Notes: a model not told the origin generated them from the letters alone. Shown: positions 9,068 to 56,474, numbered from the whole stretch's first letter. The stretch: DNA of 63,997 nucleotides, filler included, from an uncultured bacterium (GCA_964371695.1; 10 parts of 10 records of this genome joined end to end with filler, not necessarily neighbours in it), one strand, 5' to 3'. Translations and numbers: made by a program.

Positions 9068-9811
9068 ATGGGCGAAACCACACAGCGGCGGCTGGTGCGC
9101 CTGAAGGACCCCGCCACGCGGCGGCGCGAACGGCGTTTTATGGTGGAGGGCCGCAAGGCGGTGGAGGCCATGATTGCGGGCGGGGCCGTCGTGGACAGGC
9201 TGGTGGTGCTGGAGGGGGTGAACTGGCAACCGGGCGAACTGCCCGACGCCGTGACCGTTCACGTCACGCCTTCGGTCGTCATGTCGCGTCTGGCCACACT
9301 CAGCCACCGGCCTGAGCTGCTGGGGGTGTTCCGCGAGCCGGTCAATGGATTTCCTTTTGCGCCCTGGCCGGATCGTCTGCTGGTGGTGTACGGGGTGCAG
9401 GACCCCGGCAATCTGGGCACGCTGCTGCGCTCGGCGGCGGCTTTTGGTGTGGGGCACGTGGTGTTGCTCAAGGGCTGCACAGACCCCTACGCCCCCAAGG
9501 TGACCCGCGCCACGGCGGGCCTGCTGCCCCATCTGTCTCTGGCCTGGGAGGTGCCCCCCGCCGCTTTTTTTGAAGCGGCTGCGAAAAATGGAACAGCGGT
9601 GCTGGCCCTTGCGCCAGAGGGTGAAAAACCACTGCGGCCCACACCGGGCAAGGCGGCGCTTTTGCTGGGGGCCGAGGGTCAGGGGCTGAAGGGTGTGAAT
9701 CTGGAAAACAGCACGGTGGTGCGTTTGCCGGGGGTCAACCCGGCGCTGCCGCTGAACGTGGCCATGGCGGCCACCCTGGGGCTGTATGTGTTGTGGGGGC
9801 AAAAAGAGTGA
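9068..9811 (+). CDS. TrmH/SpoU family RNA methyltransferase
   Basis: VQDPGNLGTLLRSA, LGAEGQGL, LNVAMAA SPOUT motifs; alternative start at 9044. Confidence 0.9.
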   Translation: MGETTQRRLVRLKDPATRRRERRFMVEGRKAVEAMIAGGAVVDRLVVLEGVNWQPGELPDAVTVHVTPSVVMSRLATLSHRPELLGVFREPVNGFPFAPWPDRLLVVYGVQDPGNLGTLLRSAAAFGVGHVVLLKGCTDPYAPKVTRATAGLLPHLSLAWEVPPAAFFEAAAKNGTAVLALAPEGEKPLRPTPGKAALLLGAEGQGLKGVNLENSTVVRLPGVNPALPLNVAMAATLGLYVLWGQKE

Positions 9812-10785
9812 AGCCGCCGATGGTGGTTTTCATCGGCCCCAGCAACATTGGGGACGCGCTGTTGTGCCTGCCCGCCGTGCGCGCCGTGATGAAAAATCAT
9901 CCGCAGGCCAGGGGGGTGCTGCTGCTGGGTCCCCGCGCTTTTGAAGCCGTGGATGGTTTGCCGGACGGCCTTGAGACATGGCGACTGGATCGCCCCAAAA
10001 CCCCCTGGGACTGGTGGCGCGCAATGGCGCCGGTGCGGGCGCTCCGACCCGTGCGGGTGGTGGATTTTCGCCGCAGCGCCACCGGTGTGCTGGCCGCGCC
10101 GTGGCTGGCAGCCGGTTGGCGAAACACCCTGGTTGCGTTGAGGCCCCAGGCCCACGCCGGTCATGCGGCAGAGGAGTACGCCGCCCTGGCCGGTGTGGCG
10201 GTGGCCCGCGAAAAACTGACGCCCGCTGATTTTGGTTTGTTGGTGCCGCCAGAGGCGCTGGACTTGGTGCGGGAGCGTTTGGGTGAGTTGGTCGATCAGC
10301 CCCTGGTGGTGCTGCAACTGGGGGCCAGCCATGACCCCAAGCGTTATCCGCTGGCCCATTGGCTGAAACTGTCACAGATGCTGTCGCAAAAAGGTTTTGC
10401 CGTGGCCTGGGCGGGTCAGGCCGGTGAAGACGAACGCCCCCGACCCGTGCCGCCGGGGCAGGCGGATTTTCTCAACACCACCACCTTTGCTGAACTCGCG
10501 GCGCTGCTGTCGCTGGCCCGTGTGGTCATCAGCAACGACTCCGGCCCCATGCATCTGGCGGCGGCCCTGGGGGTGCCGGTGGTGGGTCTGGTTGGCCAGA
10601 CCAGCGCGGCCCGTTACGGCCCCTTTGCCCCTTGGGGTTTGGGATTGCAGAGCACCAGCGAATGCAGCCCCTGCCACGTGGCGGTGTGCCGGTTTGGCGA
10701 GCCGTTTTGTCTTAAGGAAATTTCGCCGGAAGAAGTGCTGGAGCGGGCGTTGGATTTAGTAGCGCAGGCGTCCCCGCCTGTGTGA
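9808..10785 (+). CDS. glycosyltransferase family 9 (LPS heptosyltransferase-like)
   Basis: IGDALL, KRYP, ISNDSGPMHLAAALGVPVV, C-terminal CxPC...C...C. Confidence 0.9.
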   Translation: MKPPMVVFIGPSNIGDALLCLPAVRAVMKNHPQARGVLLLGPRAFEAVDGLPDGLETWRLDRPKTPWDWWRAMAPVRALRPVRVVDFRRSATGVLAAPWLAAGWRNTLVALRPQAHAGHAAEEYAALAGVAVAREKLTPADFGLLVPPEALDLVRERLGELVDQPLVVLQLGASHDPKRYPLAHWLKLSQMLSQKGFAVAWAGQAGEDERPRPVPPGQADFLNTTTFAELAALLSLARVVISNDSGPMHLAAALGVPVVGLVGQTSAARYGPFAPWGLGLQSTSECSPCHVAVCRFGEPFCLKEISPEEVLERALDLVAQASPPV

Positions 10786-19969: not shown

Positions 19970-22900
19970 CCGCTGGCCACCGCCGCCTATCTCTGGTACA
20001 CCAACCAAACCACCGACTAACTTTTGGCCAACTGGACAAAAGTCACCATGACCAAGGTGAACACGCCCGTGGATGAATCGGGTTGTGACCACGAAGGGGC
20101 CATCACCGAATTCTCCGGCCAGATTCCCTCCTCCGTCTTTGGCACGGCAGACCATTTCATCCGTTATTACGTGCAGGTGGTGGATGGCCGGGGCAACATG
20201 GCCAGCCAGACACCCGACGCCGAAGCCACCAACATCGCGGTGGGCACCACCGATTTGCAGACCAACCCGTCTCAGGCGGCCAAGGCCCCCGTGGGCAGTC
20301 TGCTGGTGACCGACCCCAGCGGCGACACCAAAGGCAACGTGGGCCAGGGCATCAGCAAGCCGGTGGTGGATTTGTTGGGCATCAACGTGGCGGCGGGCGC
20401 CGAAACGGTGATGATGAACATCAAGATCGGCGGCGGTCCCCCCAGTCAGCCCGACGGCGCGGAGATCGAAGGCTTCATCGGCGCGCTCATCAACGGCGAC
20501 GCAGTGGACTCCGACCCCAACGACGCGCTTTATCCCGATGGCACCTTTGAGTTGTCCACTGCTTTTCAAGAGGTGTTGCCCGACTTGGTGCATGCGGTGT
20601 GGGACGGCAAATGCCTCACCAACGTGGCTCTCACCGGCGGCAGCACCGACGAGTTGCTGAACTGCGACCTTTATGCGGGCGGTGCGGGCACCGGCATGCA
20701 AGAGGTGGACGGTGTGGGGTATGTGAACTGGCTGCTGAAACACAGCGCCGATGGCGTGAGCCTGTTTGGCGCGAACAAAAACGTGGAAATCGTGACCGCC
20801 ACGGGGCAAATCGACATTGGCGCAGCGCCAGGCACCTCCCCATTCTGGATCACCGACTACACGGCGGGTGTGACCTATTACAATGTGCATCAGTCCCGCA
20901 AGGTGACGGGAGATATTCCCCCGCCGCCGCCCTGCTCAGCCCTGGCGGTCACCAAGTCTGACGCGGGCGCCACCAACACCTGCACCGTGGGCTGGAAGAA
21001 CAACAGCGGCAACCCCAACATGCCCGGGGGCGGGGGTTATTTCCTCTTCCGCAGCACCAAGGCCAACGGAGGCACCACTTTTGGGGAGCTTTCGGCGCTC
21101 AATGCGGCGGCCGTTGTGGCCCATGGGGCCGACGGTGCGGACAGCACCTATCCCGACAGCGGTCTGGCCAAAGACGGCGCGAAGTATTACTACTGGTGCA
21201 TGCCCCGTGACAAAGACGGGCGCATGCGTTATCCCGAACCCGGCCCCGCGCCCATCAAGGCCCTGTGTACCCACGCCGACTGCGCCAACTTTCCCGGCAC
21301 CGCGCCGTTTTCTCCGGCCACGTCAGCCATTTCGTGCCAGACCGACGACAGCATCCCTCCCAGCAACCCCACTGAGTTTTCCGCCAGCACACCCACGGGC
21401 GTCACGGAAATCCTGACGGTGCGCTGGAAACCCGGCACGAACGCCAGCGACCCCTCCATGATCAGCGGCGGGTCTTATCGCATTTACCGCGACGATGTGC
21501 TGGTGGGCACCAAACCCTTTGTCGCCAGCGTGGTGGAGTATGAGTTCATCGATCAGAACCTCACCAACAACACGGCCTACAACTACAAAATCATTGCCCG
21601 CGACGTGGGGGCCAACGACAGCGCGGGCGGCCTCACCGGCACCGGCACACCCACCGACCGCCAGCCTCCGCCCAAGCCGAAAAACCTCAATGGTCTGAAC
21701 CAGAGCACCGAGCAGGGGGCCAAGGCCAAGGTCATTTGGGATTACATCAGTGAAGCGGATGAACCGGGCTTCTCGTCTTATGTCGTCTATCGCTGCAAAA
21801 CCTCTGGCCTGACCGATGACCTGGGGAACTGTTCGGACGGCTCCGTGCCGCTCCCGGCAGGCACATGGACACAGATGACCTGCCCCGGCCTGGACCAGCG
21901 GGGCACCGAAACCGCCCCACCCACCTGCACCGACACCACCGTGCTGGTGGATCAAAACTACTGGTATGTTGTGACGGCAAAAGACAATGCCACGGTGCCC
22001 AACGAAAGCACCTTTCCCAGCAGTGCGTTTTCCGCCACGGGTTATCCCTATCGGGCCGTAAAAATCAAGACAAAAGTGTTCCCGGACTTCATCGGCCCCG
22101 GCAAGGTGCGTGAACTGACTGCAGTGGACACCGAAGAAGGTAAAACCTGCGAAGTGTCCTTCAAAATGCCCACGGCCAACAAAGATGCCAGCCCGTTTTG
22201 CGCCAACGGCGGCACGCAGGACTATTGCACCGCCGGTTTGACCAATGTGGTGGGCAACGAAATTGCCCAATATGCCGCCGTGGCGGACAGTGTGCAGCCC
22301 GCCGACACGGGGGTGCCCAGTTGTGGCACGAGTTTGAATGTGGGGAATCTGGCGGCGGCGGAGACCATTCTGAAGTTCAAGTGCAGCGGCCTCACCAACG
22401 GCACGCCTTATAAAATTGATGTCTACGGTGAAGATCAGAAACCCACCAAGGGTGATTTCACGGGCACGGCCGCCAACTGCACACCCACAGACAAACTGGC
22501 CCCCGCTGCTCCCACCGAGGCCGAGGGTCTGGCCTTCACCGAAAGCTCGGTGGCTGTGGGCTGGAAGGCCAGCGCGCCCGAAGCCAATGGTGGCTTTAAG
22601 CTGTATGTGTGTGTGGCCAACCCCGGCGCGGCCTGCACCGCCTTCGCCGCTGTGGATGGACTCACGCTTTCCCCTTGCAGCGGTCTGAACCTGGCCAGCA
22701 AGACCTATTGTTTTGAAGACGGCACCACCTTTGGCGCCACCGAGGGCGCGGCCCAGAAGGTGTTCCATTACAAGGTCACCGCCTTTGACGCGGCTCTGAA
22801 CGAGAGCCTTTTGTCGGAGTCAAATGAAGTGCTGGTGGACTTCTCCATTCCCAGCGCCGACGTGCAGAGTTGTGTGGCCAGTGCCAATGGCGATGCGGGT

Positions 22901-23710
22901 GACTCGGTGGAATGTTCCTGGACCACCTACAACAACACCAAGGGCGCGGCCAATTTGGTGGTGGCCTATGTGAAATGCGAAAGCACCTCGGCCTGCAACA
23001 ACGCCAACACCGCCGTGAACTGGAAGGAATCCACCGAAGTGGCGGTGACGGTCAACACCGGCATCATTGCTGCAGGTGTGATCAAGGACGACGGCTGTTA
23101 TCAGTTCGCCGTGCTGGGCAAGGTGGACGCTGCCAACAAGTCCAATCCCCTCACGGCCAACCGCCTGAACGCCTGCGTGCCCGTGAAAGGCCCTGTTGTG
23201 GTGGTTCCCACCTGCACGACGGGCTGTGTAAAACTGAAGGTAGACCTGCTGGCCATTACCAAACCCACCGGCACTGTGCCGTCGGTGGTGTTCGACCTCA
23301 TGAAAGAAGATGGCAGCGCCACCTGTCTCAAGGCAGCGGCCACCGCCACCAACGGTGAAACCATGGTGGAAGTTGACACAGCCCTCTGCCCCTCCACAGG
23401 CAATGCCAAAATCGTGATCAAGAACATCCCCGCAGGTTATGCCCGCACCACCGCCAATGAATATGTCTGCGAAAAGGCTAAAAAGCTTTCAGACATACTG
23501 GACAAAACCGATGTCACGGTACTCTGCGAACTGGCCACCGGCAAAGACGGTGGCGACGCCAACGGCGACGGCAAAATCAACCTCCAGGATCTGGGTGTGT
23601 TGAAGCCGGAATTCGGTAAAACACCTGATAAAGCAGACTTTAACGGGGACGGCAAAGTGGACTTGAAGGATCTTGGGGTGATCAAGAAATTTTTCAATCT
23701 GAGTATTTAA
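19970..23710 (+). CDS. large Cys-rich extracellular protein with multiple fibronectin type III/Ig-like domains and a C-terminal dockerin (5'-truncated; in-frame TAA at 20018-20020)
   Basis: Repeated FN3 patterns (PP.P..L...V.W...Y.IYR...F.D..L.....Y.Y.V.A.D...N.S); C-terminal GDANGDGKINLQDL / ADFNGDGKVDLKDL. Confidence 0.85.
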
Positions 23711-23751
23711 GAAGCCAAAGTGGGTAAACTCGTTAAACAGGGGAAAACAAC

Positions 23752-24810
23752 ATGACCCAAAAAACCAATTATTTGACCCGCCGTCTTGCCTTTTGGGGGT
23801 GCGGCGCACTGGCTGGGGGGGCTTTTATGGCCCTGCTGGCTGGCCCCGTCAATGCGGCCACCAATGTGCCGGTGAACTGGTCGGTGGACATGAGCTTTTT
23901 CTTCAACAACGAAGCCGCACCGGGTCAGGTGAGTCAGGATCCCCTGGCGCTCACTCTGGGGGCCTCCACCAGCAGTGGCACCACCAAGTTGAAACCCCCT
24001 CTTCCGCCCGGTCTGGCGAAAACCAACAACGCGGGTTATCCGCTGATTGACGCCTATGTCACCGAGGCCGGAAACCGCGTGTTCAACAAAACCGGCCAGA
24101 GTGATGTGGAAGGCCGCAGCGCCTACACCGTCAAGGTCACCGCCGAGCAGGCGGGGGCCGATGTTTCGCTCACCATTGATTGCAGCACGCTTGACCCCGC
24201 CATCACCCTCAATCTGGTGCATGGCCGCACGCTGAAGCGCCAAAAGGTCACCAAAAGCCTTTGCACTGGCCCCAACACCACCATGACCCTCACCGATTTT
24301 TTTGAGGTGCTTGACCCGGCCATTGCCGAGGAAGTGTTTGTGGTGGCAGCGCCCGACGGCGGTGGTTTTGTGGCCAAAAACGCTCAGGGAACCGTGATTG
24401 GTGCATTGACGACTGATAATTTGGGGGGCAGTTTTGATGGGGTGTCGCTCACCATCGGGGGGCAGACAGTCAACGTCGGCGTTGATGGCACATTCTCTGC
24501 CGGGGCCGTGGCCGGATTGCAGGAAGTGGTGATTTCTCGCAAGGGCCACCTGCGCCGCCGCCTGAACCTGAACGTAGATGGCGGCCAACCCCTGGCCATT
24601 CCCAAACTGGCGGGTGGTGACGCCAACAGCGACAACAAAATTGACCTGAAAGACCTGGGTGTGCTCAAGCAGCAGTTCAATGGGGACAACGCCTGCTACG
24701 CAGACCTGCAAAGCACGGCAAGTTGTGGTGATGCCAATGGCGACGGCAAGGTTGACCTGAAAGACCTGGGCGTGCTGAAGCAGAACTACAATCTCAATGG
24801 CGATGCCTGA
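23752..24810 (+). CDS. secreted protein with X-module-like domain plus dockerin
   Basis: Signal peptide ending VNA-A; ISRKGHLRR beta-domain, then GDANSDNKIDLKDL / GDANGDGKVDLKDL. Confidence 0.85.
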   Translation: MTQKTNYLTRRLAFWGCGALAGGAFMALLAGPVNAATNVPVNWSVDMSFFFNNEAAPGQVSQDPLALTLGASTSSGTTKLKPPLPPGLAKTNNAGYPLIDAYVTEAGNRVFNKTGQSDVEGRSAYTVKVTAEQAGADVSLTIDCSTLDPAITLNLVHGRTLKRQKVTKSLCTGPNTTMTLTDFFEVLDPAIAEEVFVVAAPDGGGFVAKNAQGTVIGALTTDNLGGSFDGVSLTIGGQTVNVGVDGTFSAGAVAGLQEVVISRKGHLRRRLNLNVDGGQPLAIPKLAGGDANSDNKIDLKDLGVLKQQFNGDNACYADLQSTASCGDANGDGKVDLKDLGVLKQNYNLNGDA

Positions 24811-24833
24811 TCTGCCGCTTCATTAAAAAAACC

Positions 24834-24860
24834 AAGCGGGGCCTTGTGCCCCGCTTTTTT
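24834..24860 (+). terminator. intrinsic terminator
   Basis: AAGCGGGGC-loop-GCCCCGCTT followed by a T-run after the dockerin genes. Confidence 0.75.
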
Positions 24861-24967
24861 ATTGCCAGTCCACTCAAAGCGATTCGCAGCTTTTCAAGAT
24901 AAAAAAAATTGCAAAGTTTGGGCTCTCAAACTTGATTTCAGCAAACACCTGCGTATAGGATGACAAC

Positions 24968-26517
24968 ATGCTTCGTCATTTCCTCGTCGGGCGCGCCTCG
25001 CGGCCAAGAGTATCTTTGTGCCGCGTTTCCGTTTTCCTGGTGATGGGGGTTTTTCTGTTTGGGGCCTCACACCGGGCACAGGCTGCTGAAACTGCCTGTT
25101 TCCTGGTGGAGTCTGGAACCGATTGCCCCACTGCCACCAACACCATCACGGTCACGCCCAACACGGCGTTTGAAATCCGCGTGGTGTATAACCCAAAAGG
25201 CGGCGCGCAAATATCTGGTCTTACGGTGGATTTTGATTTTCCCGCAGGCATTGGGGACCCCACCTGCACCGACGCCGATGCCTCTTTGCCCAACTTTCTG
25301 GGGGCGATTGAAAAAGCTGCTTCCAATCTCAAGGCCTCCTATTTCAATATTGCTGGCGCCACCAGCGGCACCAGCGCCAAGTTCATGAAGTGTTCCTTTC
25401 CCGGTGGCGCTGATGGTGCAACGGGCAACCTCACCTGGAAAATTGACGGGGCAGGGGGCCCTGCGCAGGCGGTGGACGCCGGAGGCGCACCGCTGCCTTC
25501 CATCCAGTTTGTCAATGCCACCATCAAGATTGAGCAGCCGCCCTGCACCCAGACCACCGGCGCCAGCAGCCTCACAGCCACAGCCAAAAATGTGAGCGGC
25601 GTGGCCACCTGCGACCTGACCTGGACGGCCCCGACGATTGGGCAGGGTCAGTGCCCCCTGACGGCCAATCCTTTCGCCATCACCAAAGACGGTACGCCCC
25701 TCACCGGCAGCCCCTTTGCTGCGGCCACTCTGACCTCCACGGTCAACACCGGTCTGGTGTTTAGCACCACCTATAACTTCAGTCTGGTCACCAGCACCTC
25801 CGGCGGCGCACTGGCAGCCGTGGCCACCACCTGCAAGCCTGAGCAGGGCAGCCCGCCCCAGCTCACATTCACACCTCCCACTTCGGGTCTTAAAGGCTCT
25901 CCCCTCAAGGTGGATGGTTCCTACAGCGACAGCGACAGCAACACCGTGACACCCACTGTGTTCTACCAGTCGGGAGCCAGTGCCCCGGCCACCGCACCCC
26001 TCGGCCGTCAGGCCCAGGCAGCCAATGGAACCTTTTCCGCCACAGTGCCCGGTAGCGCTGTGAATGACGGAGACGACATCAAGTTCATCATCCGTGTGGT
26101 AGATGACATCGGTCTGACCAAGTTCATTCCCACCACCATCACCGATGCAGATATTCCCAATGCCACGCCCACGCCCACCCAACTCACGGCGGCGTTCGCC
26201 AAGGTTTCCTGCACCGGCGCGGGGGCGAACTGTCTGTTGGGTGAGGACATCACCGTGGGCACCGAGCTGGCTTTTGCCGACACCAACGGCGACAGCATCG
26301 GCGATTTCCCCATTCCCAGCGAAATGCCCTTTAACCCTGCCGACAGTAATGAGCCTGACGCCAACCGGCCAGGCCTGGATATTCGTTTTGCCATGAACGC
26401 CCCCAGCCGGGTCACTGCCCGCATTTACACCCTCAATGGCCGTCTGATTCGACAGTTGCCCTCCAGCACCACCTTCTTGCCCAACACATGTGACTTTGAA
26501 CAAGGGTGCAACTGGGA
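24968..26517 (+). CDS. secreted multidomain protein: cohesin-like, FN3, Ig-like and FlgD-Ig-like C-terminal domain (3'-truncated)
   Basis: Signal peptide ending AQA-A; TITVTPNTAFEIRV...ISGLTVDFDF...FMKCSF...VNATIKI cohesin-like pattern; LDIRFAMNAPSRVTARIYTLNGRLIRQL...W. Confidence 0.7.
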
Positions 26518-26617
26518 NNNNNNNNNNNNNNNNNNNNNNNNNNNNNNNNNNNNNNNNNNNNTTAATTAATTAANNNNNNNNNNNNNNNNNNNNNNNNNNN
26601 NNNNNNNNNNNNNNNNN

Positions 26618-27159
26618 ACCTGGGGCAACAACGACGGCCTGCCCTGCACCATCACGTTGCTGCCGGGCCCCACCTCTGGACGAAACGGATCGGGCTTGAC
26701 CCCTTCGCGCACCAGAGATGCCTCCGCTGCGGCCACCTCTTCGCCCGACACGACGGCGGAATCGGTGAGATATTTCTGCTGCACCTCCGGGGCCAGGGCC
26801 AGAAACTCGGCCACCAGGGTCTGGACTTCGGGGGGGATCACTGCGTCGGCAGAGAGCGCCGCAGCGGCGGCGGCCTGGGCCGCATCGGGCGGGGCCACGG
26901 CCCCGGCTGCGCCATCTGCCGCAGGAACCGCGGCCGGTGCGGAACCCGATGCGGGTACGGGCGCGGGAGCAGGCGTAGGAGCAGGTGCAGACACAGTGGC
27001 GGCGGGTTCGTTGGGATTGGCCCCGCGCTGTTTGTTGCCCGCGTTTTTCACGTAGAACAACATGCCCGGCACCACCACCACCAGCAGCACCACATAAAGC
27101 ATGAACTTTTGAGGGCTCTCCTCGCGGATCTGCTTGATCTGTTCCAGCAACTGATTCAT
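26618..27159 (-). CDS. membrane-anchored PilP-like/hypothetical protein (3'-truncated)
   Basis: N-terminal TM, Ala/Pro linker, KPDPFRP motif; directly downstream of the pilO-like gene. Confidence 0.5.
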
Positions 27160-27773
27160 GGGCTGAGCACCCCCGCAGGCGCAGCGGCGGCGGGGTAATC
27201 CGCCACCAGAATGCGCAGGGCGATGGAACCGCTGAGTGTGGGATAACTGGCCTGATTGAGCGACAGCTTCATGGAACTCACCGCAGGCAGGGCGTTGTTG
27301 TCGGCGGCTTCTTTAAAAAGCCAGATCACGTTCTGGAAATTGCCTGAGAACTCAAGATTCACCGGCTGATATTCCCGCACCCGGTCATTGGCGCGCTCCA
27401 GGGCCTTGGCGGGTTTGTCCAGGGGGCTGGTGAGTGTGACACCGCTGTTTTGCACGGCAGTTTCCAGGTTTTGATAAACCCTGATCACGTCTTCGCTGGA
27501 TTTCGCCCTGGGGGCTTCCACCAGTTTGCCCGCGTTGAGTTTTTCCTGAATGCGCTGCACCAACTGGCGCACGTTGTTTTCTTCGGCTTTCAGCAGTTCC
27601 AGTTGTTTTTCCTGTTTGGACCCCTCGCCCCCAGCGTTGCGCAGGGTTTTCCAGTTGGGATAAACCGTGAACAGCACCATCATCGCCAGACACACCAACC
27701 CCATGACAAGGCCCGCCAGCAAGCGCTTGAATGGCGGAGACTGCGTGAGAAAGGCCATCAGGTTTTCCATCAC
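27156..27773 (-). CDS. pilO: type IV pilus PilO / T2SS GspM-like protein
   Basis: TM, coiled coil, ferredoxin-like domain (PVNLEFSGNF); position after pilMN. Confidence 0.7.
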   Translation of the reverse strand: MMENLMAFLTQSPPFKRLLAGLVMGLVCLAMMVLFTVYPNWKTLRNAGGEGSKQEKQLELLKAEENNVRQLVQRIQEKLNAGKLVEAPRAKSSEDVIRVYQNLETAVQNSGVTLTSPLDKPAKALERANDRVREYQPVNLEFSGNFQNVIWLFKEAADNNALPAVSSMKLSLNQASYPTLSGSIALRILVADYPAAAAPAGVLSP

Positions 27774-29305
27774 TCCGGCTCCTTCACTTTCAGCAAGGCC
27801 GTGATGGTGAACTTGCGAATGGGGGTGGGATCGCCCTCAAAAAGCGGCTGGTCTTCGGTGCCCTGGCTGCTCACCTGCTCCAGNNNNNNNNNNGGGCTGG
27901 CTTTGAGGTTTTCCTCAAGCCGGTAAAGCACACCCGGAGAGGTGGTGAGCCCCACAAAAATGATAGTGCGGTTGTCGCGTGAATATTTGATTTCCTGCAA
28001 CCAGGTGCGTTCGGGAAACAGGTTGGTGAGTTCGTAGACAAACCGGGGCCAGTCGGTGCCGCCGGTGATTTTGGGGGCCGAGCGGGTTTTTTGTGTGAGA
28101 TAACGCAGGGTGTTTTCCAGCACGGGTTTTTTCAGGGCCAGGGCGCTGAGGGTGGCCAACTGGACCTGGGTGTCGTTCTGCGCCTGGGTCACCTTGGCCG
28201 CCCGGCCCCTGAGTACAAACCCCAGCACCAGCGGCAACACCACCGCCGCAGCCACGGGCGAAAGCATATAAATGGCGCTTCTGATCAGTTCCCTTTTCTG
28301 AAAAACCTGCTGGTTGAACACGTTCAGCGGCAGGGTTTCGGGGCACACGGCAAACAGGGCCGCCCCCATGGCCTGGGTGAACAACCAGGGGTCCACACCG
28401 GCTTCTTCCAGCTCTGCCAGATTGGCCACCCCCAGGGCAAAAAACGGGTCCACCACCTCTACCGACAGGCCCATTTGCTCCGACAAAATGCCCGCCAGTT
28501 GCCCAGGCACATAACTGCGGGCCAGCAGATGCACCGTGGGTTCAAAAGACTGATCGGTGAACGTGGTGTAGAGGTAACGCACCGTGCGCACGGTTTCGTC
28601 CAGAAAATCCTCTTCGGTGGCGGTCAGGCCCTGGCCCATGCCCCGCTCCTCTGCGCTCTGGGCCAGGGCGGTGGCACCGATTTCAAAGGCCCGGATAAAC
28701 CGCACGGAACCGGCCTGAAGATTCACCACCTGGGTCACGCCGTCTTCCACCAGCAACACCACCTGACCCCGATCCTGGGGCGGGCGGGTCCACAGATAAA
28801 GCCTGAGCAACGACAACAGGGCGCTTTCCAGCACCGCGCCCTTGGGGTTGACCGCAGCGACGGCCTCTTGCCAGGGGTGGGTTTTTTCTTCGTTGATGGC
28901 CAGTTCCAGCACGGTTTCTTCCATCACGTCCACTTTTTGGGAGACACCGGTGGCGCGGTAATCCAGGGCGATGGTCTTGCCCTCCATGGGCTTGAACTCC
29001 ATCACCTCGGCCTCCAGGGCCTGTTGCAGCGCCTTGGGGGGCAGGTCGCGGGCGGCGGTGGTGCGGGTGATCACGTCAGGGCCTTCCAGGCTCACGGCAA
29101 TGGTGTCGGCATCCAATCCAGGCCCCAGGTGGTTTTGCAGCAAACCCGCCAGTTGCCCCTCGGCCCACTCACCGGTTTCGGTCATGGCGCCTTCGGGCAC
29201 CGGACCATAAGAGAGGTTCATGGACTGCACCTCGTCGCCGAAATAAACGGCTTCGGCGCACAGCAGGTAGCCGCCCTTCACATCCAGGCCAAAGCACCTA
29301 GGCAT
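27770..29305 (-). CDS. fused PilM-PilN type IV pilus alignment protein
   Basis: Actin-like PilM portion (FGLD..., FIRAFEIG, VEVVDPF, AMGAAL), then LN.F-TM-coiled coil-PERTWLQEI PilN portion. Confidence 0.75.
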   Translation of the reverse strand: MPRCFGLDVKGGYLLCAEAVYFGDEVQSMNLSYGPVPEGAMTETGEWAEGQLAGLLQNHLGPGLDADTIAVSLEGPDVITRTTAARDLPPKALQQALEAEVMEFKPMEGKTIALDYRATGVSQKVDVMEETVLELAINEEKTHPWQEAVAAVNPKGAVLESALLSLLRLYLWTRPPQDRGQVVLLVEDGVTQVVNLQAGSVRFIRAFEIGATALAQSAEERGMGQGLTATEEDFLDETVRTVRYLYTTFTDQSFEPTVHLLARSYVPGQLAGILSEQMGLSVEVVDPFFALGVANLAELEEAGVDPWLFTQAMGAALFAVCPETLPLNVFNQQVFQKRELIRSAIYMLSPVAAAVVLPLVLGFVLRGRAAKVTQAQNDTQVQLATLSALALKKPVLENTLRYLTQKTRSAPKITGGTDWPRFVYELTNLFPERTWLQEIKYSRDNRTIIFVGLTTSPGVLYRLEENLKASXXXXLEQVSSQGTEDQPLFEGDPTPIRKFTITALLKVKEPE

Positions 29306-29654: not shown

Positions 29655-31013
29655 TTGAGCACAAGCACTGTCACCGAAGAATCCCCATTTATCCGCCTTC
29701 TGGAAATCACCCTGGACACCGATGAGGTGCGCACCGCTGTGCAGCAGGCCGCCCAAAAGCTGAGCCAGCGGGTGCGGGTGCCCGGCTTCCGGCCCGGCAA
29801 AATCCCCATGCGGGCGCTGAAAATGCACCTGGGGGCTGAAAAGGTGGAAGAAGAAATCAAGGAACGCCTCATTTCCCTGTCTTATTCCAAAAGTTTTCAG
29901 ACCCATGGCCTGGAGCCGGTGGGGGTGCTGGAGGTGGACGCCCCCGGCGTGACCCAGGACCAGCCCTATACCTACAAGGTGAAGGTGGAAATCTTCCCGC
30001 CCATTGACATGCCGGACTTCGCCACATTGGGCCTGACCGCCCCCGAAGAAACCGCCAGCGACGAAGAAATCGCAAAGGCGCTGGAAGGCATTCAGAAAGA
30101 AAACGCCACCACCGAGGTGGTGGACCGCCCGGCAAAAGCCACGGACTGGATTTCCTTCAGCATCGTGAGCGCCCCGGCGGGACACGAAGCCCAGGTGGAA
30201 GCCATCAAGGACCAGCGTTATGTGGTGAAGCTGGACCAACGGGTGGAGGGCGACGCCTTTCTGGAAAACATGCCCGGCAAAAAAGTGGGTGAAAAAGTCT
30301 CTTTCACCACCGCCATCAGCGCCGGTTTTCCGGTGCAGGAACTGGCCGGGGCCGAAGGGGAGTTCACGTTTGAAATGATGGAAGTGCGCGAGCCGTCGCT
30401 GCCCGCCGTGGACGAAGCCCTGGCTCAGCAACTCAAACACGAAAGCGTGGACCACCTCAAGGAAACCCTCCAGCGGGTCATCACCCGCAACAAACAACGC
30501 GAGGCCGACCGGGCCTTTGGCGAAGAAATCATGAAAACCCTGCTGGCCCGCACCGCGTTTGACGTGTCAGACACCATGCTGGACCGCGAGATTGAGTCCG
30601 TCAAAGGCAACATCGCCCAGAAAACCACACTGGAAGACGCCGCGAAAAACGAGGGTCTGTCGGTGGAAGACTTTGAAAAGAAACTGCACGGCGAAACGCT
30701 GGACTACCTCAAGCGCCAACTCCTCCTGCGGCAGGTGATGTCGAAAAACAATATTCACGTTCACCAGGAAGAAATGCTCTACGCCATCATGAACCTGGCC
30801 GAAAACGCGGGCCTGGGCAAAAATGAAGCCCGCGAACTGATGAAGAACGAGCAGATTCAGGAAGAAATCCACGAACGCCTGTTGCAGGAAAAAACAATGA
30901 AGTTCATTCGCGACAGCGTGGCCGGAAAAAACCCCGCCGCCTGCGATCATGATCACGGCCACACCCATGATCACGAGCACGAGCACGAACACGAACACGA
31001 ATCCCACGACTGA
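29655..31013 (+). CDS. tig: trigger factor
   Basis: VPGFRPGKIP ribosome-binding motif, FKBP-like and C-terminal domains; TTG start with AAGGA RBS. Confidence 0.92.
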   Translation: MSTSTVTEESPFIRLLEITLDTDEVRTAVQQAAQKLSQRVRVPGFRPGKIPMRALKMHLGAEKVEEEIKERLISLSYSKSFQTHGLEPVGVLEVDAPGVTQDQPYTYKVKVEIFPPIDMPDFATLGLTAPEETASDEEIAKALEGIQKENATTEVVDRPAKATDWISFSIVSAPAGHEAQVEAIKDQRYVVKLDQRVEGDAFLENMPGKKVGEKVSFTTAISAGFPVQELAGAEGEFTFEMMEVREPSLPAVDEALAQQLKHESVDHLKETLQRVITRNKQREADRAFGEEIMKTLLARTAFDVSDTMLDREIESVKGNIAQKTTLEDAAKNEGLSVEDFEKKLHGETLDYLKRQLLLRQVMSKNNIHVHQEEMLYAIMNLAENAGLGKNEARELMKNEQIQEEIHERLLQEKTMKFIRDSVAGKNPAACDHDHGHTHDHEHEHEHEHESHD

Positions 31014-46450: not shown

Positions 46451-47386
46451 GTGGTGCTCACCGGTTGCAACAGCGCCGCGCCGCCCCCTGCCCCCACGGC
46501 CACGCCGGGAGGCGGGCCGGTTTCGGGCAGCGCCACCGTGCCGTCCATGCCGGGAGCACCCGGAGTGGTCTCCGGCAGCGCACAGGCCAGCGGCTCACAA
46601 CCCGTCGCACCGCCTCCTTCTGATGACCTGGATCTGGCCGAGCGCGAAAAACGCCGTTTGAAACAGCGCGAAGAATCCCTCAAAAAAGAAGAAGAAGAAG
46701 AACGCCACACGCTGTTTGTGACCGAAAACGCCTTTCATGACCTCAAAACAGGCCGTTATGACCCTTTTGTGGAAGTGGATCCCTACCGGGAGCTGAACCC
46801 CGAGGTGGGCATGGCCATCAATTCACAGTTTTACCGGGTCACGGGTTTTGCCAAGCAGGGCGACAAAATCTATGGCGTGGTGGAACTGGGCATGAATTTC
46901 ACCCTGGTTCCGCCACGGGCAATATCCGCCGTGGCGGTGACGGGCGACGCCTTTTACAAAGACTATATGGTGCAGGAAAACCAGCTACTTTGGCGGGGTC
47001 AGCCGGTGCAGGATGGCGAAATCCTGCCCACCGGCGAAATCGTGGACGAAGCCGAGGTGTACAAGAATCTGGTGGTGGTGTCACAGATTGACATGGACAA
47101 AGGCACCATCACGCTCAAAACTGTTCCCAGAGACAAAATTCCCTCGCAGCAGGTGACGCTGGAGCTGGGCTCCCGCAAACGTGCTGCGGCGGCCTCCACC
47201 AAACCGGGCGAAGAAGTTGACCTGGACATTGACCCCAACGCCAACAACGACGAATACATCCGTTATCTCTATGAAAAGACCAACAACCCTGGCGGCAAAA
47301 AGAAACGCAACTTCAACGACTATCTCAAAAACCTGAAAAAGAAGAACCAGCAGGAAAAAGGGCAGGGAGAGCCGGATGGAGGCTGA
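46451..47386 (+). CDS. lipoprotein, PilP-like (5'-truncated)
   Basis: Lipobox LTGC, disordered linker, RYDPF motif, beta-rich domain; directly upstream of the secretin. Confidence 0.6.
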   Translation: MVLTGCNSAAPPPAPTATPGGGPVSGSATVPSMPGAPGVVSGSAQASGSQPVAPPPSDDLDLAEREKRRLKQREESLKKEEEEERHTLFVTENAFHDLKTGRYDPFVEVDPYRELNPEVGMAINSQFYRVTGFAKQGDKIYGVVELGMNFTLVPPRAISAVAVTGDAFYKDYMVQENQLLWRGQPVQDGEILPTGEIVDEAEVYKNLVVVSQIDMDKGTITLKTVPRDKIPSQQVTLELGSRKRAAAASTKPGEEVDLDIDPNANNDEYIRYLYEKTNNPGGKKKRNFNDYLKNLKKKNQQEKGQGEPDGG

Positions 47387-47447
47387 GCGGTGCGCACAAA
47401 CATTTCACGGCCATCCGCATTGCGGCGGCCAGCAAGGGGGGCTTAGA

Positions 47448-50400
47448 ATGGCCCGGCGTTTTGCCCCCGTGGATGTGCTCATGACCCGTCGCCTGATGTT
47501 TGTGTTGTTGTGCCTTGGCCTGTGGCCGGGCTTGCTGGCGGGCCGCGTCCAGGCCAAGGTCACCGATGTCCACGTGGAAAAGTCCCGCAACAACGTGGTG
47601 CTGTTCATTCGCGGCAACGAAACCCTTCAATACAAACTGAGCGAGTTTGAAAACCCCAACCGCCTGCTGGTGACGGTGTTTGAGCAGGACATGGCCTCGG
47701 ACCGCGAGAGCATCCGGGTGGGTCAGGGGCAGGTGGACAAGGTTTTTGTCAAACAGGAAGGCCAGCACGTGCGGGTGAGCGTGAACCTGCTGGCGCGCAC
47801 CCAATACAACGTTTACACCAAAGACGGCAATCGCACCATCGTGCTGAGCCTGCGCACCGACGATTTTGAAATTGACGCCGCGCCGGGACAGCAGGAATCC
47901 GCCGGTGCAGCCCCCACGGGCGACGGTGCCCCGTCCAGCGGAGGCGTGCCCGTCAAGGGGGGGCAGCAGGGCAGCGGCGCGTCCTCTGGCAGCAGCGGCA
48001 GCAACTTTCCCCCGCCGGGGTTTGCTTATCGCGATTACAAGGGCGAAGCGCCCCCGCCCCTGCCCGGATACGGTTTTGACAATGTGGGGGCCAGCGCTGG
48101 GGAGGGGGGCGCCGCAGGTCAGTTCGACGTCTTCGGCAAAAGGATAGATTCCAGCCCCCTGCTGGAGCACATCGTGTTTCAGGACGCCGAAATCAGCGAA
48201 GTGGCCCTGCAACTCAGCCGGTTGACCAACACCAACATTCTGGTGGATTCCCTTCTTGTGGGGGCCACGGCGGGCAGCACCGCTTCGCCAGAGAGCGGCG
48301 TGGAGGCGGGCACCGGCGGCGTTTCGCTGGATCTCAAGAACGTCACGCTGGAGCAGGCCTTGGATTTCATCACCAAAGCCAGTGGCTGGGCCTGGGTAAA
48401 GATAGCCAACACCTACATGATTCTCGCCTCCGAGACCAAGTTTGCCGGGTTTTCGGATGAGTCCACCTGGGGTAAAACCAACGCCGACACCACGCTGCCC
48501 GTCGACGTGCGTTACATCCCTCTGCGCTACGCCAGCGTCGCCATGCTGGCCCCCTATGTCAATGCCGTGTTCGGCTTGGGGGCAGGGGGAGAAGAAGCCG
48601 CCGACTGGCCCAATGTCGCCTATGACGCCGCCCGCAACATCATCATCCTGCGGGGCGCGTTGCATGAGCTGGACAAAGCCGAAGCGGTCATCAAAAAACT
48701 GGACACACCTGGTTTTGACAACAACATCATTTTCAAGATCATTCCCATTCCGAAAGATCTGGTGAAGATTGACCAGGCCAGTTTCAACGAACTGATCAAC
48801 GCCCTCATGGCCAGTCCCTATCTGGGTTATGACGGCAAACACACCACCGACACCTACGTGGATACCAATGCCGTCAGTTATCAACTGCAGTTTCTCTCCA
48901 ACGCCAGCCAGTTGATATTTCTGGGAAACCCAGAGGCCTATCAAAAGGTCAAGGCGGTGATTGACCAGTTTTTTGCCAACCATGAAACCTGGCGCATGCA
49001 TCCGTTCAAATTGATCAACATTCCCGTCTCGGCCCTGAACTTCAAAGACTTTGCCTCGGTCCTCAAATATGACCTTACCAAGGGGGGCCAAAACAACTAT
49101 GAAATGGATATACGGCGCAACGGCACACTGTTTTTAGACACCGGCAACAATGTGGTGTTCTTTTTCGGCACCAAAGAGGATGCAGATCGCCTCAAGATCG
49201 TTCTGGAACGCGTGGACACGGCGGAAGCCAAAGTTGTTTCCGTCAAGGTCAAGCTCAAAAACCTTCAAACCAATCTCATCGCCCCCACAACGATGGAGGG
49301 ATCCACCGTGGTAAACCCGACTGAACAGTTGGAGGATTGCCAACATCCACTGGACTGTCAGTTGCAGAATCCCTATTACGGTTACCCGGCCTATGGTGGG
49401 AACGTCATGCAGCCACCCCCGGACGATGATGATCGCAAGATGTTTTATCGCAATCCTGTCGGCATACAGTTTCATCATGCCATCAACACCATTTCGATCA
49501 TCGGCCCCCAGTTGTTTGCCCACCGGATTCGTGATTTTTTTCTGGAAGCCGATGCCGAAAACAAAGTCGAGCAGGTGGAGGACACCGTCCGGCTCAAATA
49601 CATGCTGCCCTCGGACGTGGGCCAGTACATCACACTGATGATGAGCAAGGGTGTGGGTTGTGGCGCTCCCCTGGGGGGCAATCAGTCTCGCGTGGAGACC
49701 AAGACGCCCACCGTGCCCACGCCGCCCCTGGCCGGCGCCGCCACCACGCCGCTTAATTTGAACTCAGGTTTTGTGCAGGTGGTTGCTGGAGAGTTGGCCC
49801 GGGACGCTTATGACGGTGCCTGTCTGTTGTGGGTAGCCGATGAACAGAAGGGCACGTTTTATCTCAAAGGCCCCCCCAACGCCGTGCGTCTGGCAAAAAA
49901 TGTGGTGCGGGCCTATGACACGCCCGTGCCCATGGTGAAGCTGGACGTGAAAGTGCTGGAGGTGCGGTCCAGCGACGTGGACGAACTGGGGGGCAAGGGC
50001 ACCCAGCGCCTGGGCGACATTCTGCTGGGCGCGGACGGGGCCACGGGCCTTGTCACGTCCATTCTCGATGAAGTCACCGATCTTGCCTCAGGGGCCATCC
50101 GCAACGGAGACGGCTCACTGGAACTCAAGTTCCGCAACAGCAAGGCCAAGGCCCGTGTGCTGGCCAACCCCAGCATTCTCACCAGCCACATGAAAGTCAC
50201 CAATTTTGATTTCACCGACGCGGTGGGTTATCAGCAGGCCACCGGCACCAGCAACGATGTGGCGGTGGAAGAACTGGGCATCACCCTTGCGGTCACGCCT
50301 TACATCCACGACCAGAACGAAGTCACCCTGGAGGTCAACCCGGACATCCGCACGCTGGGGGGCTTTTTTGAAGGCCAGTCCTGCGCCCTGGTGCAGGGAA

Positions 50401-50705
50401 GCGGCGGCGCCAGCGGCACCAGCCAGTGCCTGCCCACCCGCAGGCCCCTCATCAGCACACGCAACCTCACCACCAAGGTGCGGGTGACCAACAATGTGCC
50501 CCTCATCATCGGCGGTCTCATCTCAAGCCGCGACACCGAAAACGTCAGCAAAATTCCGATTTTGGGCGATCTGCCCCTGTTCGGTTCCTTCTTCCGCAAC
50601 GCCAGCAAATCCAAGGAAGACCTGGAAGTGGTCATCGTCATCACCCCCACCATCCTGATGGGTGAAAACCTCTCCAGCACCCCCACCGACGAAACCGCCC
50701 AGTAG
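47448..50705 (+). CDS. pilQ: type IV pilus/type II secretion secretin with AMIN domain (PilQ-like)
   Basis: AMIN (ENPNRLLV), N0 (FQDAEI, LKNVTLEQAL), N3-type repeats, secretin core (VLANPSI, GITLAVTP, KIPILGDLPLFG.FF, VIVITPTI). Confidence 0.88.
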   Translation: MARRFAPVDVLMTRRLMFVLLCLGLWPGLLAGRVQAKVTDVHVEKSRNNVVLFIRGNETLQYKLSEFENPNRLLVTVFEQDMASDRESIRVGQGQVDKVFVKQEGQHVRVSVNLLARTQYNVYTKDGNRTIVLSLRTDDFEIDAAPGQQESAGAAPTGDGAPSSGGVPVKGGQQGSGASSGSSGSNFPPPGFAYRDYKGEAPPPLPGYGFDNVGASAGEGGAAGQFDVFGKRIDSSPLLEHIVFQDAEISEVALQLSRLTNTNILVDSLLVGATAGSTASPESGVEAGTGGVSLDLKNVTLEQALDFITKASGWAWVKIANTYMILASETKFAGFSDESTWGKTNADTTLPVDVRYIPLRYASVAMLAPYVNAVFGLGAGGEEAADWPNVAYDAARNIIILRGALHELDKAEAVIKKLDTPGFDNNIIFKIIPIPKDLVKIDQASFNELINALMASPYLGYDGKHTTDTYVDTNAVSYQLQFLSNASQLIFLGNPEAYQKVKAVIDQFFANHETWRMHPFKLINIPVSALNFKDFASVLKYDLTKGGQNNYEMDIRRNGTLFLDTGNNVVFFFGTKEDADRLKIVLERVDTAEAKVVSVKVKLKNLQTNLIAPTTMEGSTVVNPTEQLEDCQHPLDCQLQNPYYGYPAYGGNVMQPPPDDDDRKMFYRNPVGIQFHHAINTISIIGPQLFAHRIRDFFLEADAENKVEQVEDTVRLKYMLPSDVGQYITLMMSKGVGCGAPLGGNQSRVETKTPTVPTPPLAGAATTPLNLNSGFVQVVAGELARDAYDGACLLWVADEQKGTFYLKGPPNAVRLAKNVVRAYDTPVPMVKLDVKVLEVRSSDVDELGGKGTQRLGDILLGADGATGLVTSILDEVTDLASGAIRNGDGSLELKFRNSKAKARVLANPSILTSHMKVTNFDFTDAVGYQQATGTSNDVAVEELGITLAVTPYIHDQNEVTLEVNPDIRTLGGFFEGQSCALVQGSGGASGTSQCLPTRRPLISTRNLTTKVRVTNNVPLIIGGLISSRDTENVSKIPILGDLPLFGSFFRNASKSKEDLEVVIVITPTILMGENLSSTPTDETAQ

Positions 50706-54457: not shown

Positions 54458-56353
54458 CTAATTGGTGGTGAACGACCCTTGAACCACGTTGCTGCTCAGC
54501 ACGTTGGCGCCGCTCAGGTTTGCCGCGCTGGCGGCGAGGTCCAGCGTCACGCCCTGGCTGTCCTTGAGGGTGTTCAGGTCCAGCGTCAGCACATAAGAGT
54601 AACTCTGGGCGGCGTTCAGGCGGCGGGTGTCGGTGAGGGTGAAGGTGAGCGTGGTGCTGTTGGTCCACACCGCGTTGCCGATGCTGGCGCTGGTGATGTT
54701 GCTGAGGATGGTGGTGCCGATGGTTTCGTTGGTGAGCGCGAGGGTGAGCGAAGGCGTGAGCGCGGTGTTCATGGCCCGGCTGAAGGTGATGGTGCCCGTG
54801 GTGCTGCTGGCGGGGATGACGCCGCCGTTGGCGGGCGAAACCGTGAGCACCAGCGGCGGGTTGGCCGGTGTGGTGAAGGTGTAGGTCACCGCTTGGCCGC
54901 TCACCGTGATGCCGCTGCCCAGGCTGGCAGCGTTGGTGAGGCTGAGTGTGTTGCCCGCGGCGTCTTTAAGGCCGTTTGCGCCCGTGCCAAAGGTGAGGCG
55001 CAACTGATAACTGGTTCCCCCGGTGAGGCGGCGGGGGTCGGTGAGGGTAAAGGTGAGGGTCTGGTTGCCGTTGCTCCAGGCCACGGCGCCCAGTGTGTTC
55101 TGGGCCGCGCCGTTGATCACCGTGGTTTGTGTGCCGCTGGAAGGGTTGAGCAGCGTGACGGTGACATCGGGCGTGGCGGTGGCGGTCATGGCTTCACTGA
55201 AGGTGACCGAGGCGGTGGTGAGTTCGGAGCTCACCGAGCCGCCCGCCGTGGGGGTGAGGCTGGTGATGGTGGGGGCCGTGGTGTCGGTGGGGGTGGAGGA
55301 ACTGGCGGAAACCGTGAAGGTGGTGTTGCTGCTGAGATAGATGTCCCCCACGGTGAGAATGACCAGTGTGCCTGTGGTGCCCGCCACCGCTGTGGAGGGC
55401 AGGGTGAAGCTGAGCGCCGAGCTTGTGCCCGACAGGGCCACCACGCCGGTAAAGGTGACATCGGTGCAGCCTGTTTTTTTGACGGTCACGGTTTGGGTGC
55501 CCCCCAGGCCCGTGACCGGTGTGCCGGAACTCACCAGGCCCACATAGGCCCCGGTGGTGGGCAGGCTCGTGCCCGAAATGGTGACCACCGAGCCGGGGGT
55601 GGTGGTGGCGGGACTGACCGAGGTGATGGATCCTGCCGTGGTGTTGCAGGTGGTTCCGCCGCCGGTGGTAGAGCCGATGTCGCCGCTGGAGGGCAGGGTG
55701 CTGGTGGGCAGGCTGTTGGCCGCCGCCACCGTGCTGGTGAAAACGGTGTTGAGGGAGGCCGCGAGGGTGGTGTCTGCCGCCGGGCTGGTGGCGGCGGTGT
55801 CATAACCTTCGCCAGAGGGTGTTTTGATTTTTGTCAGGGGATTGTTGGCTGCTGAAACCACCATGGCCCCGCCCGCGCTGGCGGGAACAGTGAGGGAGCC
55901 AAAGGTGAACTGGTTGCTGGAGAGGGTGCCGGTGAGGGGCAGGGTGGTGGTGGTGAGGGTGCCGCTGGCGGATGTGTAGGGATAACCAAAGGTGGCGTAG
56001 ATGGTGTTGCTGCGGATGAGCAGCAGGCGATAGGTGCGGCCATAGTCCAGGGCAAGGCTGAGGGTGGCGATGCCGGAGCCGGGGGCGGTCTCTGCCAGTG
56101 AGCCGGTTTTGGTGGTGGCGTCGGTGGCATAGGCCAGCACACGCCAGTCGGCAAAAGCGCTGCCTTGGCGAAAGCCCCCCGCCGGGGCGTTCAGCGTGGC
56201 GGAGACATTCACCGTGGTGACGGCGGTGGTGGTGCCGCCGGGTTTTTTGCTGCCGCCGCAACCGGCGGCGAGGGCCGCCAGAAACACCAGGGGCAAAGCC
56301 CAAAGGGCGGTGGGCCGGGTTTTGGGGATGAGACCAGCAATGTTGTTAAGCAC
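54458..56353 (-). CDS. Thr/Ser-rich surface lipoprotein with an IPT/TIG-like domain and two Big_5-type Ig-like domains
   Basis: Lipobox AAGC; DTTAPTI..L.P...VTFSEAM...TLTFT...LKD..GN repeats. Confidence 0.8.
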   Translation of the reverse strand: MLNNIAGLIPKTRPTALWALPLVFLAALAAGCGGSKKPGGTTTAVTTVNVSATLNAPAGGFRQGSAFADWRVLAYATDATTKTGSLAETAPGSGIATLSLALDYGRTYRLLLIRSNTIYATFGYPYTSASGTLTTTTLPLTGTLSSNQFTFGSLTVPASAGGAMVVSAANNPLTKIKTPSGEGYDTAATSPAADTTLAASLNTVFTSTVAAANSLPTSTLPSSGDIGSTTGGGTTCNTTAGSITSVSPATTTPGSVVTISGTSLPTTGAYVGLVSSGTPVTGLGGTQTVTVKKTGCTDVTFTGVVALSGTSSALSFTLPSTAVAGTTGTLVILTVGDIYLSSNTTFTVSASSSTPTDTTAPTITSLTPTAGGSVSSELTTASVTFSEAMTATATPDVTVTLLNPSSGTQTTVINGAAQNTLGAVAWSNGNQTLTFTLTDPRRLTGGTSYQLRLTFGTGANGLKDAAGNTLSLTNAASLGSGITVSGQAVTYTFTTPANPPLVLTVSPANGGVIPASSTTGTITFSRAMNTALTPSLTLALTNETIGTTILSNITSASIGNAVWTNSTTLTFTLTDTRRLNAAQSYSYVLTLDLNTLKDSQGVTLDLAASAANLSGANVLSSNVVQGSFTTN

Positions 56354-56416
56354 GATAGAAATAATTTACCCGATTTTGCCGGTGGGTAACCAGAAGTTGT
56401 TTCAAAAGCTGTTCAT

Positions 56417-56446
56417 AAAAAAACCCGGCCCAAATGGGCCGGGTTT
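56417..56446 (-). terminator. intrinsic terminator
   Basis: AAACCCGGCCC-loop-GGGCCGGGTTT followed by a T-run on the minus strand. Confidence 0.7.
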
Positions 56447-56474
56447 GAAAAGTCTTGAGGAATGAGGTTGATGA

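Follow-up and report, generated by a model that had tools for sequence, protein, structure and literature searches.

The cohesin is a nine-stranded, flattened β-sandwich (jelly roll) of ~140–150 residues that binds a dockerin with high affinity in a calcium-dependent manner, and the dockerin is composed of two tandem segments of ~22 residues, each an EF-hand-like calcium loop followed by a helix. In type I dockerins near-duplicate halves go together with a dual binding mode. A cellulosome combines dockerin-borne glycoside hydrolases with a scaffoldin that carries a cellulose-binding carbohydrate-binding module (CBM). The OlpA and OlpC proteins are anchored by S-layer homology (SLH) repeats on the Gram-positive wall, ScaC is an adaptor scaffoldin with one cohesin and one dockerin, and cohesins found outside cellulosomes were reportedly surveyed by Peer et al. 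in 2009. The uncultured Candidatus Stygibacter (Cloacimonadota) encodes a 3,755-residue scaffoldin with tandem Pfam-type cohesins, CBMs and an inferred type IX secretion system (T9SS) C-terminal domain (CTD); this conserved CTD is proposed to attach the cohesin protein to the cell's own surface, and the cargo comprises glycoside hydrolases and peptidases (PMC8542988). Here we describe a locus from an uncultured sediment bacterium, positions 19,970–26,517 of a window of 63,997 bases (the whole stretch of DNA that was analyzed), with three co-oriented genes, A, B and C, all of which the initial annotation had called and all of which were recovered as open reading frames (ORFs). On balance, and with modest confidence, we favor the reading that this locus is part of a non-cellulosomal cohesin–dockerin surface system of a diderm, in which protein C would serve as a tail-anchored socket and dockerin proteins would plug into it.

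The locus corresponds to exactly one contig (C173, 6,548 bp) of a metagenome-assembled genome (MAG), here called G000, and both outer genes run off its ends; a search within the assembly found no contig overlapping either end and none with the missing end of gene C. The genome amounts to 3.43 Mb in 672 contigs, is estimated to be 83% complete and 2.16% contaminated. No other genome from its phylum is included in the species representatives of GTDB 232. The comparison genomes used below (the 40 nearest, later 400) are related to it only at the level of domain.

The full-length sequence of C, 571 amino acids, was taken from the 99%-identical protein P0003. Behind the signal peptide come the module with the predicted cohesin fold, a second module that is conserved, a middle region and, at the C-terminus, a putative sorting tail. 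For residues 38–195 an AlphaFold2 model (model 2) was obtained from an alignment of four rows, including a 27%-identical paralogue, with a predicted local distance difference test (pLDDT) score of 74.4 and a predicted TM-score (pTM) of 0.71. When this model was compared by VIA with 48,161 Protein Data Bank (PDB) representatives, the 20 best rows were all cohesin entries, with Z-scores of 14.8–10.4 and root mean square deviations (rmsd) of 2.3–4.1 Å over 126–139 residues. These entries span types I, II and III as well as non-cellulosomal cohesins; 19 are named as cohesins and one, 2o4e, is titled only as a protein-protein interaction module. The best match was 6kgc_A (Z 14.8, 132 residues, 2.3 Å), followed by the Archaeoglobus cohesin 2xdh (Z 14.0), with 2vo8 in fifth place (Z 13.6), and the first fold other than a cohesin was that of the pilin RrgB, at Z 9.9. 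Foldseek returned 59 matches to the same model at E ≤ 0.001, and among the matches listed all were cohesins, the best being 2vn5_A (E 1.3e-7, TM-scores 0.68/0.74). A first model (model 1; three-row alignment, pLDDT 59.8) was superseded by model 2; it gave no Foldseek match at E ≤ 0.001, and its best VIA match, at Z 8.2, was a cohesin tied with unrelated folds, a value not above noise. The view that the N-terminal domain of C has a cohesin fold, with no detectable sequence homology to cohesins, is well supported by the modeling. The assignment of this domain as a cohesin in the initial annotation is thereby upheld at the level of predicted fold, with the sequence profiles remaining silent.

The module belongs to a small family. 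In the genome it has three paralogous members, in C, in P0004 (contig C56) and in P0007 (contig C28), which share 27–43% mutual identity; beyond it, relatives were the near-identical P0003 and, in a second public assembly, P0008, which looks like an orthologue of P0004. A phmmer search of 1.84 billion representatives with the module yielded four matches, of which P0003 and P0004 were real and the other two were discarded as low-complexity sequence, and word-indexed searches added P0007 and P0008 only. The module had no match in 40 other genomes and none in JGI metagenome or GTDB genome contigs, both contig sets being covered by pattern-based scans that may omit G000 itself, and a look-up in the ESM Atlas gave no entry for the queried sequence. 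Within the genome, the module occurs only in proteins that carry a dockerin or are encoded beside one.

The dockerin side of the system is larger. A six-frame search of the genome with Pfam Dockerin_1 (PF00404, cut-off 22.9 bits) gave seven matches on six contigs, all marked as over the cut-off, and an eighth dockerin protein, of 381 amino acids on C28, was found by BLAST and motif; the genome total is thus three cohesin modules of the divergent family and eight dockerin proteins. In hmmscan, five further dockerin proteins besides A and B scored 22.5–40.7 bits, the lowest (on C6) just under the cut-off. The D-x-N/D-x-D...D loop is present twice in all eight (by motif census; seven of them in alignment A5). 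Among solved structures, a profile of these dockerins picked out type I dockerins (1daq, E 8.1e-8), and the dockerin of A as a single protein also matched this structure, the dockerin of CelS (E 6e-4). The dockerins are 50–70% identical to that of A, share 19 invariant columns and are built from two near-duplicate halves, from which we infer that a dual binding mode may apply here as well. In A, the Dockerin_1 match and the near-identical EF-hand repeats agree with the duplicated, calcium-binding dockerin proposed initially. In B, described at the outset as a 352-residue secreted protein with a terminal dockerin, the signal peptide and two EF-hand repeats were found, while the Pfam match lies close to the cut-off, with 20.9 bits in hmmscan and 23.4 bits when the genome was searched in six frames, and is thus borderline. 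Judged by their sequences, the dockerins of A and B are genuine, type-I-like, internally duplicated and calcium-binding modules. Five of the dockerin proteins additionally share a conserved, Cys-containing module of ~110 residues in front of the dockerin.

The cargo of the dockerin proteins consists of repeat, propeller or unassigned domains. Pfam scans revealed no glycoside hydrolase family among the eight dockerin proteins, in line with the initial annotation, and no glycoside hydrolase or CBM family in A, B, C and the five other dockerin proteins scanned; the region of B between signal peptide and dockerin belonged to no known family in Pfam and NCBIfam scans. On the evidence of these scans the system has neither dockerin-borne glycoside hydrolases nor a CBM-bearing scaffoldin and is not a cellulosome. 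The 738-residue dockerin protein on C33 may be a metalloprotease cargo.

Gene order links the two kinds of module. A dockerin lies in the same polypeptide as the cohesin module in two of the three cohesin proteins (P0004 and P0007), and a dockerin-only gene stands directly upstream of two of the three cohesin genes, B before C and the 381-residue gene before that of P0007. Given eight dockerin genes in ~3.4 Mb, two such adjacencies are very unlikely to have arisen by chance. The likeness of B to the 381-residue protein is one of architecture and position; homology outside the dockerins was considered and rejected, the alignment covering the dockerins only. On C28 (10664–13001), the 381-residue gene and the P0007 gene overlap by 26 bases; upstream of the pair are genes for DNA polymerase III alpha and for an 890-residue ankyrin-repeat protein. 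On C56 (2520–6118), two radical SAM genes, one of them fused to a methyltransferase, are directly upstream of the P0004 gene.

At the locus itself, genes A and B are separated by 41 bases. Behind B there is a strong terminator-like hairpin, with 9 base pairs (7 G-C) and a subsequent T run, and then an AT-rich stretch of 100 bases that leads up to C. Gene C is therefore probably transcribed separately from A and B, which probably share a transcript; a sigma-70 promoter scan of the contig gave 0 sites.

The envelope and the tail of C bear on where such a system would reside. The initial annotation had proposed an outer membrane, and the presence of GT9 and secretin genes on other contigs of the window, together with Omp85 (121.5 bits) and LpxC (196.7 bits) elsewhere in the genome, supports a diderm envelope. 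The tail of C, which in P0003 reads ...WDGTDFG...NGMYIINI...TKGIVVMK, aligned by hhalign with the tails of two large surface proteins on contigs C214 and C377 (84.8%, E 6.5e-6, 65 columns). Both of the latter tails are above the cut-off of Pfam FlgD_ig (48.1 and 33.5 bits), match positions 965–1094 of the PorU model, which are its CTD end, and reach 16.8 and 18.2 bits on TIGR04183, whose cut-off is 23. On C214 the gene with the FlgD-Ig/PorU-CTD-like tail (3–767) has a member of the PorV/PorQ family as its immediate downstream neighbor (808–1785; NF033709 106.1 bits, cut-off 90; Pfam PorV 30.1 bits, cut-off 27). A second, weaker hit was also found. TIGR04189 reached 15.7 bits only. The gene pair on C214 is a hint that type IX-like sorting may occur beyond the usual phyla. 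The initial annotation had offered C as a scaffold or adaptor. The scaffold part of that proposal did not hold: with only one cohesin and a putative sorting tail at its C-terminus, C has the look of an anchoring protein rather than of a multi-cohesin scaffold.

In the arrangement that we favor, C would leave the cell much as type IX secretion cargo does, its tail would fix it to the outer membrane, and it would there present one cohesin socket, as OlpA and OlpC do. Dockerin proteins would plug into this socket with calcium, either directly, as A, B and other cargo might, or via P0004 and P0007 acting as adaptors. The outcome would be a modular cell-surface layer whose proteins are adhesin-like and in some cases perhaps protease-like. 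A model of the C cohesin module in complex with the A dockerin and two calcium ions, run without controls, gave ipSAE values of 0.20 and 0.21, under the mark of 0.32, and counts neither for nor against binding.

Several observations weigh against this arrangement. Pfam Cohesin (PF00963, gathering score 24.1 bits) had no match at E ≤ 1 in the genome as a whole, a profile search of the PDB with the cohesin family of C found no cohesin, and an hhalign comparison of this family with 25 Pfam-positive cohesins from other genomes reached a probability of 1.1% over 35 columns, these columns being the register to which the initial annotation had pointed. The cohesin fold rests on one AlphaFold2 model, made from a four-row alignment and with no residue at pLDDT 90, and a cohesin fold alone is no proof of dockerin binding. 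The tail of C itself had no Pfam or NCBIfam match at E ≤ 10, TIGR04183 stayed under its cut-off throughout the genome, and searches of the 83% complete assembly did not find SprA_N, GldM or the catalytic portion of PorU, a result of little weight given that the control genomes were silent as well. Finally, the hairpin sets C apart from A and B, and the contig, whose tetranucleotide composition has a correlation of 0.914 with the mean of the bin, ranks at the 7th percentile in this respect.

Part of this evidence would fit a different wiring of the same kit, in which A and B dock on the cohesins of P0004 and P0007 or on cohesins encoded in the unassembled 17% of the genome, and C takes only the dockerins of the adaptors or a partner that has no dockerin. 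The P0004 and P0007 cohesin proteins are equally good partners for the proteins of the locus, the three cohesin paralogues are only 27–43% identical, whereas the eight dockerins are very similar, the MAG is 83% complete, and the dockerin-only gene of C28 likewise precedes a cohesin gene whose protein has a dockerin of its own; the hairpin between B and C points in the same direction. However, with dockerins as alike as these and 19 columns invariant, a sharp specificity is not obvious, and gene B lies directly before gene C. We regard this wiring as unlikely, although it is an alternative that has to be taken seriously.

It is improbable, in our judgment, that no assembly takes place at all, with the cohesin-fold module being a β-sandwich spacer or ligand-binding domain, the double EF-hands serving to stabilize their proteins or to bind calcium, polysaccharide or envelope, and the genes being neighbors through co-regulation. 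In favor of this view, sequence-level homology to cohesins is missing, and pilin and adhesin β-sandwiches come next in the VIA comparison, at Z 9.9–9.0. Yet the 20 best VIA rows are cohesins, rows 1–19 stand at least 0.9 Z above the first other fold, the module keeps company with dockerins wherever it occurs in the genome, and chance would very rarely produce the two dockerin-then-cohesin gene pairs. Very improbable is a contaminated bin in which the cohesin–dockerin genes and the outer-membrane genes come from different organisms: the estimated contamination of 2.16%, the low depth of C173 (~1–6) and the composition of C173 and, more so, of C28 (tetranucleotide correlation 0.861, under the 1st percentile; GC 54.7% versus 61.1 ± 2.0% for the bin) speak for it, but paralogues of the cohesin, the pre-dockerin module and the dockerin are found on C56 and C33, where the composition is typical of the bin (91st and 97th percentile), and on C1, C28 also carries the DNA polymerase III alpha gene, and odd composition is frequent in surface-protein genes.

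The tail-anchored socket may be extended one step further. P0004 and P0007 could polymerize head to tail, the dockerin of one in the cohesin of the next, and form fibrils or a lattice that starts from tail-anchored C, is decorated by A, B and propeller proteins and is exported in a T9SS-like manner. We put this forward as a speculative and rather doubtful extension; if it were true, it would be a self-assembling surface layer made wholly of cellulosome parts in the sole GTDB representative of its phylum.

The coordinates of the features of the locus, of the envelope markers on other contigs of the window and of the remaining dockerin proteins of the genome are collected in Table 1.

Table 1 Features of the locus and of related loci; positions are those of the window unless a contig is named.
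Feature	Position	Strand	Description
Gene A	19970..23710	+	ORF 20024-23710; truncated at the 5' contig edge; Cys-rich repeat protein, secreted
FN3-like module of A	21362..21607	+	only fn3 match in A; Pfam 23.6 bits, just below the cut-off of 25
Pre-dockerin module of A	23195..23527	+	~110 residues, conserved, Cys-containing; in the position of an X-module
Dockerin of A	23552..23707	+	near-identical EF-hand repeats DANGDGKINLQDLGVLK and DFNGDGKVDLKDLGVIK; Pfam 30.7 bits
Gene B	23752-24810	+	352 residues; signal peptide, then ~250 residues, then dockerin; no pre-dockerin module
Signal peptide of B	23752-23856	+	contains T-R-R-L-A-F, twin-arginine-like
Dockerin of B	24616..24783	+	both calcium loops intact; longer linker between the repeats
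Terminator-like hairpin between B and C	24834..24863	+	hairpin 24834-24856, then T run
Gene C	24968..26517	+	truncated at the 3' contig edge; 516 of 571 residues
Cohesin-fold module of C	25079..25552	+	residues 38-195; AlphaFold2, VIA and Foldseek
Second module of C	25553..25840	+	residues 196-291; conserved with P0004 and P0008; FN3-like by eye
Start of FlgD-Ig-type tail of C	26375..26517	+	last 55 residues from P0003 only
GT9	9793-10782		on another contig of the window; outer-membrane marker
Secretin	47376-50702		1,109 residues; Secretin_N and weak STN match; flanking ORFs of 311 and 564 residues without Pfam match
Dockerin protein P0004	C56		cohesin module, pre-dockerin module and dockerin
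Dockerin protein P0007	C28		cohesin module, pre-dockerin module and dockerin
Dockerin protein, 381 residues	C28		N-terminal part without assigned family
Dockerin protein, 738 residues	C33, 6605-8818		HEHYH (HExxH) motif by eye; no Pfam peptidase match
Dockerin protein	C1		FG-GAP propeller
Dockerin protein	C6		Kelch plus Ig

Gene A had been estimated to encode more than 1228 amino acids, and P0009, which is 100% identical to it and comes from a different assembly, gives its full length as 1,334 amino acids, including a signal peptide. In this form it contains 36 cysteines (2.7%), and P0010, a protein of 1,347 amino acids from another public assembly, is an orthologue at 46% identity. Up to the contig edge, the only stop in the reading frame of A is a TAA codon at 20018–20020, 17 codons from the edge. 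An error at the end of the contig or a difference between strains most likely explains this codon, because P0009 has Glu in its place and the differences cluster at the start of the contig: between C173 and the source of P0009 there are 8 differences in 1,246 codons, 5 of which lie within the first 17 codons of the contig. Contig C173 is present in four DNA runs of one sediment-metagenome study, as short Logan contigs with a depth of ~1–6, and the TAA sits near the end of the sole record covering it. No RNA run is listed as containing the contig. As to the rest of C, the FN3/Ig domains that the initial annotation had placed behind its first domain were not confirmed, since no profile matched them at E ≤ 10; C had no match in Pfam or NCBIfam at this threshold.

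The window is assembled from length-sorted contigs of the MAG (C170–C179 or so), which are joined by spacers of 44 N, TTAATTAATTAA and 44 N. Many proteins of the genome have no Pfam match. On the minus strand at 26566–29305 are ORFs of 196, 205 and ~471–511 amino acids that have no Pfam match at 1e-5 and by eye resemble a pilus assembly set of the PilM/N/O type, and at 29655–31013 there is a trigger factor gene whose product carries a C-terminal tail rich in histidine (HDHGHTHDHEHEHEHEHESHD); ClpP comes next. The minus strand at 54461–58745 encodes two adjoining proteins with Big_5 Ig-like domains, of 631 and 756 amino acids, in a region with an unusually strong, positive GC skew (0.21–0.28).

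Pfam cohesins score over their cut-off in 78 of 401 diverse genomes, many of them with several copies, and in G000 there are none. Cohesins are common well beyond the cellulolytic Firmicutes. The initial annotation was right that cohesin–dockerin systems exist outside cellulosomes, but its view that they are mostly uncharacterized makes the case appear newer than it is: besides these 78 genomes, diderms with cellulase-free cohesin–dockerin kits have been described before (PMC8542988). The new aspect is an unusually divergent cohesin family in a lineage without close relatives; the principle itself is known. The locus would add a further case of the cohesin–dockerin principle, without a recognizable carbohydrate-active enzyme, on a diderm surface, and a cohesin that is detectable by its fold only implies that profile-based censuses may undercount such systems, including those of uncultured diderms. 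In practical terms the gain is modest: with three cohesins and eight dockerins that are nearly identical, the set is small and tractable and might supply new orthogonal pairs for protein assembly. No long-standing question is opened by this system.

Three groups of known proteins offer close parallels to the system. The non-cellulosomal cohesins of Archaeoglobus fulgidus (2xdh) and of the GH33 and GH84 proteins of Clostridium perfringens (2vo8 and 2w1n) show, as C does in the model, the cohesin fold outside cellulosomes, and an FN3 module comes after the cohesin of 2w1n, a succession that C may share; those cohesins are recognized by sequence profiles, whereas the C family is not. OlpA and OlpC of Clostridium thermocellum (3ul4 and 4dh2) resemble C in having one cohesin on a surface-anchored protein that is able to hold single dockerin proteins. 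Their cohesins are among the VIA matches of C (Z 12.3 and 12.4), and the likeness extends to the dockerins of the genome, which match type I and are internally duplicated. In contrast to OlpA and OlpC, the anchor of C would be a FlgD-Ig/T9SS-like tail in a diderm, C has no similarity to Pfam cohesins, and the cargo is not carbohydrate-active as judged by Pfam. The third parallel concerns P0004 and P0007, which, like ScaC of Ruminococcus flavefaciens (5lxv and 4uyp), combine one cohesin with one dockerin; ScaC cohesins are also among the VIA matches of C (Z 13.7 and 11.0), but P0004 and P0007 carry the extra conserved, Cys-containing module before the dockerin.

The system that the locus most resembles is that of Stygibacter (PMC8542988). 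In contrast to that system, the cohesins of G000 are single and invisible to Pfam, there is no CBM, and no hydrolase was recognized, apart from the HExxH motif seen by eye in the C33 protein. What the two would share is an uncultured diderm lineage, secreted proteins with dockerins at their tails, and a cohesin protein that bears a CTD.

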